Part shown: positions 6,975 to 8,605 of the stretch, in pieces
Layout of the letters: each line of letters opens with the position of its first letter
How positions within the stretch are numbered: the stretch's first letter is position 1
Origin: Minisyncoccota bacterium
GTDB taxonomy: Bacteria > Patescibacteriota > Minisyncoccia > Phycocordibacterales > Phycocordibacteraceae
Direction of reading: 5' to 3'
DNA: 54,909 bases
Assembly: GCA_022841985.1 (NCBI GenBank)
Contig: JALHQL010000001.1
Span: 71,529 to 126,437, forward strand
Translations under genes and position numbers: made by a program
Notes under the pieces: generated by a model
Told to the model about the DNA's origin: nothing
Databases searched by the model: none
What the model saw: the letters and a program-made list of their open reading frames with translations, nothing else

Positions 6975-7334
6975 ATGGACCATCAGCAGTCAGCAGCATC
7001 AGTGCAAAGCAACAAACTTTACGTAGGCGGCATCCCTTATCGCTCGACAGAAGACGATCTCAAGAAAGCCTTTAGCGAGGCCGGAAATGTCGTTTCCGCG
7101 AGCATTATCAGCGACCGTATGACAGGTCGTTCACGAGGCTTTGGCTTCGTCGAAATGGCAACCGAGGCGGAAGCCCAGGCAGCTATCGACCGTTTGGACG
7201 GCAAGGAACTCGACGGGCGTACGCTCTCGGTATCCTTTGCTCGCCCACAAGGTGATCGTCCCCCACGCCGCGAAGGCGGTTTTGGAGGTGGTGATCGCGG
7301 CGGTAATAGCGGCTACGGCCGAGGCGGATACTAA
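6975..7334 (+). CDS. RRM RNA-binding protein with Gly/Arg-rich tail
   Basis: KLYVGGI (RNP2), RGFGFVEM (RNP1), GGFGGGDRGG tail. Confidence 0.95.
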   Translation: MDHQQSAASVQSNKLYVGGIPYRSTEDDLKKAFSEAGNVVSASIISDRMTGRSRGFGFVEMATEAEAQAAIDRLDGKELDGRTLSVSFARPQGDRPPRREGGFGGGDRGGNSGYGRGGY

Positions 7335-7351
7335 TCCTTTATCGAATATTT

Positions 7352-7390
7352 AAGAAAGCCCGCCCTCTTTTAGAGGGCGGGCTTTCTTTA
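7352..7390 (+). terminator. Intrinsic terminator
   Basis: 17-bp stem AAGAAAGCCCGCCCTCT/AGAGGGCGGGCTTTCTT. Confidence 0.8.
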
Positions 7391-7409
7391 TGTGTGCTAG
7401 CGTTTCCTC

Positions 7410-8333
7410 ATGATTCGCGACGAACAATGGCTTCTTAATGAAAAATATGCCGGAAAGGAAAGCGCTGAATATGAAGCCGATAAAAAGCGGCTCGCCAAAG
7501 GCGAGCCGCTTGGATACGTGATTGGTTGGCAGCCGTTTCTCGGTCTAAAAATCTATCTCGACTCAAAACCTCTCATCCCCCGTCCCGAAACAGAATGGTG
7601 GGTCGAGCAGCTTACAAATGCGATTTCTGGGACTCCGTACCGTGCAACGGTGCAAGCAGAAGAAACATTTTCAGCGACTTTATTTTCTTATAAGCGAAGC
7701 GAATTAGAAAATAAAAAGTACTCTTGTGGTGCAAAAAACGATTCCGTGCCCAGAAATCGCATTTGTGAGTTGCGATTTTTGGATCTCTGTGCCGGTTCCG
7801 GCGCTATCGGCTGCGCAGCGCTCGCAAGGATGCCTGGCGCTCAAGTCTATTTCGGCGAGATCGACCCGGCGCACGAAGCAACCATTCAAAAAAATATACG
7901 TGAAAATAATCTTGATGCTTCTCGCGCCGATATTCGCATCGGTGATTTATTTGAGCCATTTAGCGCAACCAATTTTTCTTGTCCATACTCGAACTTAGAA
8001 AAATGGAAGTACCCTTGTGGTGATATGCAATTCGATATCATCGCAGCGAATCCACCCTACATTCCCATCGACCGCGAACTCCCCGCAAGCGTCGCGGACC
8101 ACGAACCGGCACGTGCGCTCTTTGCCGGAGATGATGGACTCGATGTTATTCGCCGCATTGCGACAGCGCTTCCGAAACATCTAGCCGAAAATGGAGTTGC
8201 ATGGGTCGAATGTGACAGTTCCAAAGTCGAAGAGGCTCAAAAACTGTTTGTGGCGCAAGGTTTCTCGACCGAGATACGCACCGACCAATACGGCAAACCG
8301 CGCATCCTTGTAGTATCATTTTCTCAATGCTAA
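7410..8333 (+). CDS. prmC: Release factor glutamine methyltransferase (HemK/PrmC) with two in-frame insertions
   Basis: GEPLGYVIG, LIPRPETE, LDLCAGSG, ANPPY, HEP..ALFAG.DGLD. Confidence 0.92.
   Translation: MIRDEQWLLNEKYAGKESAEYEADKKRLAKGEPLGYVIGWQPFLGLKIYLDSKPLIPRPETEWWVEQLTNAISGTPYRATVQAEETFSATLFSYKRSELENKKYSCGAKNDSVPRNRICELRFLDLCAGSGAIGCAALARMPGAQVYFGEIDPAHEATIQKNIRENNLDASRADIRIGDLFEPFSATNFSCPYSNLEKWKYPCGDMQFDIIAANPPYIPIDRELPASVADHEPARALFAGDDGLDVIRRIATALPKHLAENGVAWVECDSSKVEEAQKLFVAQGFSTEIRTDQYGKPRILVVSFSQC
7611..7769. repeat. 159-bp palindromic element inserted in frame in prmC
   Basis: 21-bp terminal inverted repeats (7611-7631/7749-7769, one mismatch), internal hairpins, length exactly 53 codons. 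Confidence 0.75.
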
Positions 8334-8605
8334 CTCAGTCACTCCCTCACTTTGACCCTTCTATACTTTTCACAAAATTGAACCTTCCTGGAACTTTTTC
8401 CGAGAGTACTCTAGTGATCTTGATTCTGTGCACTATCCTTGCCTTCTGGGCAATGTATACGCTCGTTGCCATCTATCATTGGCTCAAATATTCTCACGCT
8501 TCATGGGTTGCGTTCCCTGCAATATCCGTACATCTTTTCATATCGATCGCGATCATATCCTACGCACTCTACGGCAACATACCATTCCTTATTTCTTATT
8601 TATGA
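8327..8605 (+). CDS. Small hypothetical membrane protein (2 TM)
   Basis: Two hydrophobic segments; overlaps the prmC stop and the next start (coupled). Confidence 0.65.
   Translation: MLTQSLPHFDPSILFTKLNLPGTFSESTLVILILCTILAFWAMYTLVAIYHWLKYSHASWVAFPAISVHLFISIAIISYALYGNIPFLISYL

Follow-up and report, generated by a model that had tools for sequence, protein, structure and literature searches.

What is a 159-bp palindrome doing, in frame, inside an essential gene of a very small genome? The window analysed here is a stretch of 54,909 nucleotides on the forward strand of contig JALHQL010000001.1 (contig 1, C1) from a Minisyncoccota bacterium (assembly GCA_022841985.1); the source genome, hereafter G000, measures 670,906 bp (0.67 Mb), with a completeness of 98%. 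Positions are those of the window, in which 7631-7675 corresponds to C1 79159-79203; G-numbers designate the genomes compared and L-numbers the fetched loci. The palindrome (7611-7769) lies in prmC and had been singled out in an earlier reading made from the sequence alone. Comparison with related genomes indicates that it consists of an inner hairpin repeat nested in the apical loop of an outer, Y-shaped palindrome (Y-element), and that the two belong to different families. [quoted passage not shown] The features concerned are the following.

7410..8333, plus strand: prmC coding sequence, 307 codons and stop, host of all the elements (open reading frame list, TIGR03534, motifs, AlphaFold2, Foldseek).
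7607..7673, plus strand: 5′ half of the outer 102-bp Y-element, with the left arm at 7607-7631, hairpin P2 within 7634-7660 and the 5′ strand of hairpin P3 at 7662-7672 (repeat search, fold, orthologues).
7674..7730, plus strand: inner 57-bp hairpin element, 19 codons, in the apical loop of P3, with its own stem at 7679-7691 / 7703-7715 (orthologue gap; nhmmer E 8.8e-18).
7731..7773, plus strand: 3′ half of the outer Y-element, with the P3 3′ strand at 7734-7745 and the right arm at 7749-7773 (repeat search, fold, alignment).
7962..8022, plus strand: second, more diverged 57-bp copy, a direct repeat at 82% (nhmmer C1:79493-79550, E 5.3e-07).

The sequence-only reading had described 21-bp arms with one mismatch, enclosing inner hairpins, in an element of exactly 53 codons placed where PrmC normally has a short loop. 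The palindrome is real. A repeat search recovered the arms and lengthened them to 25 nt (7607-7631 and 7749-7773, 92% complementary, 117 nt between), the 21-bp arms being contained in these. Folded as RNA, 7601-7779 reaches -71.4 kcal/mol, compared to -40.2 ± 4.0 kcal/mol for 200 dinucleotide shuffles, none of which was as stable (z -7.79). Both inner hairpins are present, ACCGT-GCA-ACGGT within 7637-7653 and the TTTATTTTCTTAT / ATTAGAAAATAAA stem at 7679-7691 / 7703-7715. Set against the open reading frame 7410-8333, the 159 nt of 7611-7769 are indeed 53 codons in frame. As for the loop, it extends over 59 residues from ETEWW to LDLCAGSG in G000, versus 16-19 residues in nine palindrome-free orthologues (L022, L024-L029, L031, L034), in which the corresponding DNA folds with only -6 to -18 kcal/mol. 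In a protein search of 61 related genomes, most PrmC orthologues of the same genus aligned at residues 1 to ~72 and ~120 to 307, with the middle unmatched.

DNA alignment of orthologues resolves this insert into two parts. The outer palindrome stands at the same codons in G213, G180, G014 and G139, each time with an exact gap of 57 columns; the 159 bp therefore comprise a 102-bp outer element and a 57-bp inner one. The extra bases of G000, 7674-7730, fall where the four orthologues read TTTTCA directly followed by GCAGAAAA. Because GC is found at both junctions, the register is ambiguous by 2 nt, and 7676-7732 is equally possible. According to the orthologue comparison, the inner element landed at this site in an already existing hairpin, in the loop of P3. 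Database counts agree with two units: the 179-nt stretch matches only itself and its own arms in G000, and the whole 159 bp has no match in the searched genus genomes, where only its parts match. Used as a query (E ≤ 0.01), the 179 nt hit 59 of 201 genus genomes, and the ~100 places listed correspond mostly to query positions 67-138; the outer-only sequence of G213 hit 69 of 222 (E ≤ 0.001). A 16-mer count, which is a weak test, gave two matches with at most three mismatches versus 0.66 expected, a value attained by 17 of 100 shuffles.

Hence, the sequence-only proposal of a MITE- or REP-like element had the kind right and the unit wrong, since it merged two nested elements and overlooked the second inner copy at 7962-8022. 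The alignment that it had called for found the empty site of the inner element (in G213, G014, G180 and G139), and the copy search left the 159-bp whole single-copy in its genome, with its parts dispersed in the genus. Mapping on a structural model placed both inserts in loops of low predicted local distance difference test (pLDDT) score. Its analogy with RPEs fits as well: this palindromic repeat DNA lies in frame, has relatives at other places and is matched by empty sites among orthologues.

An alignment of 28 copies of the inner family outlines a hairpin with a compensating stem, a conserved loop and a conserved 3′ tail; 7 of the 14 predicted pairs show compensatory changes. The ends of the element are asymmetric and have no terminal inverted repeat. 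Copies usually leave one open frame per orientation, and those between genes carry indels that are not multiples of three. The nhmmer profile of this family finds three copies in G000: 7674-7730 (E 8.8e-18), one on contig 4 beside an apparent tRNA gene (E 2.4e-08), and 7962-8022 (E 5.3e-07). The latter lies 291 bp downstream of the first in the same prmC and adds 19 residues (S185-C203) between GDLFEPF and FDIIAANPPY; its 3′ GTGGT may be native sequence. At this second site, G000 has an insertion of 57 nt and G010 one of 60 nt; G213, G013, G014, G031 and G005 have none. After in-silico excision, 11 of 30 distinct inner copies were found to sit inside a Y-core, at several positions; nesting is common. 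A loose search of G000 for P3-type hairpins returned 13 pattern matches, one of which resembled a family member by eye. The inner element of contig 4 (30297-30346) and a Y-core of contig 7 (19218-19271) both adjoin what look by eye like tRNA genes.

The outer element is a Y-shaped palindrome made of 25-nt arms and a conserved core of two hairpins. In prmC, the core profile matches C1:79159-79203 (7631-7675) and C1:79259-79280 (7731-7752), the second match being weak alone (E 1.6). Copies share a core of ~60 nt, each with its own long, almost perfect arms of ~13-35 nt; within one subfamily, the 13-15 nt of arm adjoining the core are common. Among 33 aligned copies, 13 of the 17 predicted core pairs show compensatory changes, and unpaired core motifs are kept across non-orthologous copies in many species. 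G000 has three Y-elements, in prmC, upstream of prfA and beside an apparent tRNA gene. The core is stop-free in a mean of 4.2 of the six frames, versus 2.5 for mononucleotide shuffles.

Genomic context was surveyed at 40 places, drawn from the outer-only match list blind to gene context. Four Y-cores lie well within long open frames (one dnaE, two prmC and an 813-codon frame without a Pfam match) and two at the extreme 5′ end of a frame, before its first domain (prfA and a pilin-like gene). A further 14 are only in frames without a Pfam match (13 frames of 80-215 codons and one of 587 codons antisense to dnaB), and 20 are in no frame of at least 80 codons. Neighbouring genes are varied (gyrA three times, trmD, rpoC/dnaG, secA, ftsZ, ribosomal proteins and others). 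Because these neighbours are of many kinds, the idea of a connection with translation-termination genes (prmC, prfA, pth, frr) was dropped. Outside this survey, other loci held additional prmC copies and the five dnaE genes described below. In three species (L150, L173, L182) a Y-core is found just downstream of gyrA, in one of them in the opposite orientation relative to the gene.

The origin of the arms was considered at the prfA spacer and in dnaE. At both places the empty sites lack the arms, and the flanks do not resemble them; they are therefore neither a duplicated target nor an older local hairpin visible in relatives, and their derivation as inverted copies of the target flank was rejected. 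Arms may be made at insertion, may have been extended by template switching, or may have been supplied by earlier REP insertions followed by nesting. In a single copy (L067), the distal arms resemble a REP stem, an anecdotal observation.

Three sites are occupied repeatedly. The first is the prmC loop itself. All of the closer orthologues have palindromes in it, of at least four kinds: GTAGGAC...GTCCTAC hairpins (L013, L014, L016, L018, L019), Y-elements, a family with a different core, and a fourth type. In several lineages, the arms start at the same EQL/EEL codons, and the right arm encodes new residues that replace ancestral ones. PrmC also bears further lineage-specific inserts, all short and located in other loops: 10 residues after LDS (L006), 7 residues (L009), 4-10 residues (L016, L018), 15 residues (L008), ~10 residues (G213), and ~15 residues at site 2 in the distant L027.

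The second site is a loop of DnaE, between PPDVNESG and IRFGLSSIK, compared at L057, L081, L089, L091 and L092. It is 29 residues long and empty in G000 (contig 1, from ~38858), and reaches 70-114 residues in five other species, where it holds Y-cores or the inner element; one dnaE gene has two oppositely oriented Y-cores and another the inner element. In a sixth dnaE (L156), a Y-core lies inside the HHH_6 region. The third site precedes prfA, the gene of RF1, the substrate of PrmC. There, the G000 Y-element (contig 1, 52968-53023, locus L130) has its own arms. The same spacer is empty in G010 and contains other palindromes in G213, G031 and G180; G139, G233 and G191 also carry elements upstream of prfA. 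In G180 (L135/L140, contig 2, ~93500-94700), an apparent duplicate of the first ~45 bases of prfA flanks palindromic elements.

The host gene is otherwise intact. TIGR03534 is the best-scoring family for 7410-8333 (E 1.2e-50, 172.4 bits); the match is split into two stretches by the insert and stays below the curated cut-off of 199.1. A true PrmC is thus pushed under the curated score of its own family model by the inserts, and automatic annotation can be disturbed in this way. The residues N214, P215, P216 and Y217 (NPPY), as well as C127, G129, S130 and G131 (CAGSG), are invariant across 29 orthologues. The AlphaFold2 model has a mean pLDDT of 83.3 and a predicted template modelling (TM) score of 0.80, and a Foldseek search with it found the two-domain fold of solved PrmC structures: E. 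coli PrmC is the top match (2b3t_A, E 2.9e-17, TM 0.69/0.76), with 1t43 (TM 0.70/0.78) and Thermotoga HemK also among the best.

On this model, pLDDT is below 50 at residues 76-111 and 113-116, and the 10-residue block 191-200 has a mean of 55, with most of the remaining model above 90. Both inserts are thus predicted to be low-confidence loops on an otherwise confident fold. Insert 1 stands ahead of strand 1 in the Rossmann-like fold, and insert 2 separates strands 3 and 4; judging by how class I methyltransferases are generally laid out, both points would be distant from the S-adenosylmethionine and glutamine sites. The three pieces (outer, inner and second inner copy) are in frame and without stops in G000, and every translated orthologue is open across its loop, at lengths of 15-87 residues. 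We infer translation from these intact frames, as no listed sequencing run is on record as RNA; the inserts would then appear in the protein as ~53 and 19 extra, probably disordered residues. Two DNA sequencing runs of one study contain small shares of the sequence words.

Comparison of five prmC orthologues, with a structure specified by us, indicates what is being conserved in the insert. Over 45 pairs, 96.4% of cells can pair, versus 36-48% when the partner is slid by 1-3 columns. Both sides have changed in 12 of the 45 pairs, nine of them in the 25-pair arm helix. In this helix, 97.6% of cells pair. None of 500 shuffles attains the values observed; with five related sequences this is not a probability, and the double changes are plain in the alignment itself. 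Between G000 and each of the four other species, the element is 71-86% identical in nucleotides, 72-83% in third positions and 58-75% in residues; the rest of prmC gives 69-80%, 47-63% and 72-82%, respectively. Substitutions in the element therefore lack the codon pattern of the host gene. What is constrained in the insert, in these alignments, is the nucleotide sequence and its pairing rather than the peptide.

Neither strand nor orientation is singled out. Over 41 copies, the arms contain 66 G-U pairs on the core strand and 74 on the opposite one, a symmetry that tells neither RNA from DNA nor which strand is concerned. At 20 surveyed places, in our reading, the core runs along co-directional neighbours in 11 and against them in 9. 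An Rfam scan of 7300-8400 gave nothing on the 159-bp element; matches elsewhere, mostly at 7352-7388, were far below gathering scores. In 11 loci with intact copies, Rfam returned only microRNA-like matches on long hairpins and one tRNA, and no ribozyme or intron family matched the element in either set. At L068, a long hairpin at 442-546, unrelated to the core at 1500-1590, is scored by a microRNA precursor model on both strands and is probably one more palindromic element. The 7352-7388 hairpin, between an RRM-protein gene (6975-7334) and prmC, pairs perfectly over 17 bp around a 3-nt loop, is followed by T's, and looks like an intrinsic terminator.

Enzymes that could move such elements exist in the genus. 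Y1_Tnp (PF01797) was matched in four of five genomes tried, and IS110-type transposase (PF01548) in none of the five. In G000, Y1 is present only as a 67-codon fragment with an internal TGA, near a contig end (contig 2, 72380-72562). Genes resembling REP-associated tyrosine transposases (RAYTs; ~210-240 residues) occur in 109 of 222 genus genomes, with up to 12 matches per genome; the same query gave no match in G000. Most of those examined (L093-L129) have a short, subgroup-typical hairpin at one or both flanks. At L096, the 10-bp stem of this hairpin (TTAGGACATC/GATGTCCTAA) is identical to that of the L032 prmC-loop hairpin, with different 3-nt loops. REP/RAYT systems are therefore active in the genus and reach the prmC loop. 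TAGGAC-type REP hairpins were not found in G000. In G180, a RAYT-like gene with its own REPs (L062/L065/L122, contig 2, ~147800-149400) lies ~850 bp from the prmC palindrome, a proximity that may be chance.

With these data, the following course of events is proposed, its order being based on the species comparison. An ancestor of at least five species would have acquired a Y-shaped palindrome in the loop between the ETEWW.EQL helix and the first methyltransferase strand. Later, on the line leading to G000, a 57-bp hairpin element would have inserted into the apical loop of a Y-element hairpin, and another 57-bp copy would have settled in the next variable loop of prmC. The elements may move as single-stranded hairpins that favour hairpin loops as targets, by means of transposases acting in trans, for which RAYT and IS200-like Y1 enzymes, common in the genus, are candidates; as Y1 is reduced to a fragment in G000, the copies of this genome would be fossils. 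Selection on the hairpin, or template switching from arm to arm, could keep the arms paired. Both families are dispersed in the genus, the 57-bp insertion is precise and has empty sites, the frame is kept and the rest of PrmC is intact.

Several observations weigh against such an interpretation. Target-site duplication is not clear: site 1 offers only the 2-nt GC ambiguity, site 2 a possible overlap with GTGGT, and the prfA spacer no duplication. Site 2 is shared by G000 and G010, but not by the closest relative G213, and this patchiness needs loss, recombination or repeated insertion; in a quick PrmC tree, most forks were unsupported, with G000, G213 and G031 grouped (SH-aLRT 97). Copy number in G000 is low, three of each family. 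The copy-specific arms have no visible source at the prfA spacer, whose empty form lacks them and whose flanks are unrelated. Of more than 340 RAYT matches, 30 loci were examined, and neither a Y-core nor an inner element flanks any of these; among ~85 element loci only that of G180 prmC (L062 = L065) holds a RAYT gene, which simply stands beside prmC. Translation of the inserts is deduced from open frames. Finally, third positions better conserved than those of the host gene would be unexpected in a dead selfish insert, so that there is room for a function in the host.

The last point leads to a rather unlikely alternative, in which the host maintains the Y-element, and perhaps the inner hairpin too, as a functional structure of its DNA or RNA. 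As a hairpin or cruciform in DNA, or as a stem in RNA, it could affect how prmC, dnaE and the genes beside intergenic copies are replicated, transcribed or translated, or how their mRNA decays; mobility would be secondary or long past. Arm pairing kept through nine double changes in 25 pairs across five species would be expected of such a structure, as would third positions at 72-83% inside the element against 47-63% outside, with residues less conserved, the maintenance of unpaired core motifs among non-orthologous copies in many species, and the repeated occupation of the prmC loop, the dnaE loop and the prfA leader. However, a working signal would be hard to reconcile with the lack of a strand signal (66 versus 74 G-U pairs in 41 copies) or of an orientation bias (11 versus 9 of 20, and one dnaE with opposed cores). 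No Rfam family lies at or near the element, the genes beside intergenic copies are functionally unrelated, and the structure is dispensable: close relatives have short or different prmC loops, the G000 dnaE loop is empty, and so is the G010 prfA spacer. It is improbable that the palindrome arose where it stands, from a small seed hairpin extended by intrastrand template switching (quasi-palindrome extension), with repeated conversion producing the similarity of cores. Template switching perfects quasi-palindromes, and the arms are copy-specific, nearly perfect and symmetric in G-U pairs. In prmC, the left arm begins within the conserved EQL codons, the complementary right arm overwrites residues of palindrome-free orthologues, and three different core families have arms beginning at the same codons. 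Yet such a process cannot make the same asymmetric core of 57 nt or ~60 nt at dozens of unrelated loci in dozens of species. Moreover, the 57-bp piece has sharp ends and exact empty sites, and the whole prfA-spacer element, arms included, is absent from G010. Template switching may still account for arm growth and pairing after insertion.

Two further explanations were considered. The insert could be absent from the mature protein, by removal from the mRNA or by ribosomal bypass as in T4 gene 60 and the 'byp' elements of a yeast mitochondrion; a long stable stem does bring the flanks of the insert together, and AlphaFold2 finds no structure for the inserted residues. A frame constraint is needless if the piece is skipped, and the examined intragenic copies nevertheless keep frame and have no stops (prmC loops of 15-87 residues, six dnaE genes), whereas intergenic copies do carry indels that are not multiples of three. 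This speaks against skipping, and together with the lack of a matching ribozyme or intron family makes it very improbable. An assembly artefact, that is a chimeric or fold-back join in a metagenome-assembled genome, has a negligible chance of being the answer. Palindromes can arise by amplification or assembly, but the outer element is found, with compensatory differences, at the same codons in assemblies of four other species, the frame is intact, and each part has relatives in 59-69 genus genomes.

Beyond the preferred reading of tolerated, nested repeats, a bolder one can be formulated, which on balance we consider unlikely. Y-elements and 57-bp hairpins would form an undescribed class of mobile DNA in ultra-small bacteria that lands in the apical loops of existing hairpins and whose long, copy-specific arms are made or renewed by insertion and repair. 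The conservation of orthologous copies at the nucleotide level would mean that hosts have adopted them as structural DNA or RNA signals in a few essential genes (prmC, dnaE, the prfA leader). If so, palindromes would grow from inside, like Russian dolls.

As a genomic curiosity, selfish palindromes lodged in protein-coding genes are classically known from Rickettsia and a few bacteria rich in REPs. Here, the same phenomenon is met in a genus with genomes of ~0.4-1.0 Mb, where spare DNA is thought to be scarce. The material is clean, with exact empty sites, three levels of nesting, three hot sites filled differently from species to species, and in-frame covarying arms. It makes testable the target choice of hairpin repeats, the upkeep of palindrome perfection, the tolerance of an essential enzyme for extra loops, and whether inserts turn useful to the host.

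Among known systems, RPEs are the closest in kind. PMC10969869 describes in-frame palindromic repeats in Rickettsia genes, with RPE-1 to RPE-10 as palindromic repeats of ~100-150 bp located between genes and in frame in housekeeping genes, where they add a peptide that the fold tolerates. Similarly, several copies are found here between genes and in frame within them, at the level of the genus, G000 having only three per family, and the inserts lie in what pLDDT predicts to be tolerated loops. Differences are the 0.67-Mb genome of another lineage, two nested families, an outer core that is conserved with copy-specific arms, and sampled intragenic copies that concentrate in prmC and dnaE rather than in many genes. 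The element works like an RPE without being classed as one, the comparison being one of features.

REP/RAYT systems also offer a parallel. According to PMC3733652, REPs are imperfect palindromes of 20-40 bp with a GTAG or CGTC tag at one end, mostly extragenic hairpin repeats that are sometimes intragenic, notably in replication and repair genes including R. conorii dnaE. In the present genus, GTAGGAC...GTCCTAC hairpins are found in other species at this very loop of prmC. However, the elements described here measure 57 and 102 bp, no GTAG or CGTC tag was seen by eye in alignments of the inner element and the Y-core, and no RAYT gene is flanked by them among 30 loci; because of these three differences, they are not classed as REPs. 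A search of a limited literature collection turned up no account, for the candidate phyla radiation or for bacteria of such small genome size, of REP/RAYT systems or of palindromes within genes.

Bacterial MITEs and ERIC/RU repeats are, according to PMC10969869 (see also PMC2759123), short non-coding stem-loop elements found between and within genes, where in-frame fusions are possible. The 13-15 nt core-proximal terminal inverted repeats of one Y-element subfamily recall MITEs; the inner element, in contrast, has no terminal inverted repeat, and its target-site duplication is ambiguous. A parent insertion sequence with matching ends did not come to light, no search having been aimed at one. 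Transposition of IS200/IS605 elements proceeds through single strands, and these elements have asymmetric ends, an internal hairpin and no target duplication. The elements described here, which share asymmetric ends, an internal hairpin, hairpin-forming targets and the lack of a clear target duplication, resemble them and their miniature derivatives in a genus that possesses Y1 genes, and the nesting suggests a preference for hairpin-loop targets. They differ in that no target tetranucleotide was established and no element-transposase pairing shown. What sets the prmC palindrome and its relatives apart from all these systems is the combination of nesting, a conserved core with variable arms, recurrence at three sites and very small genomes.

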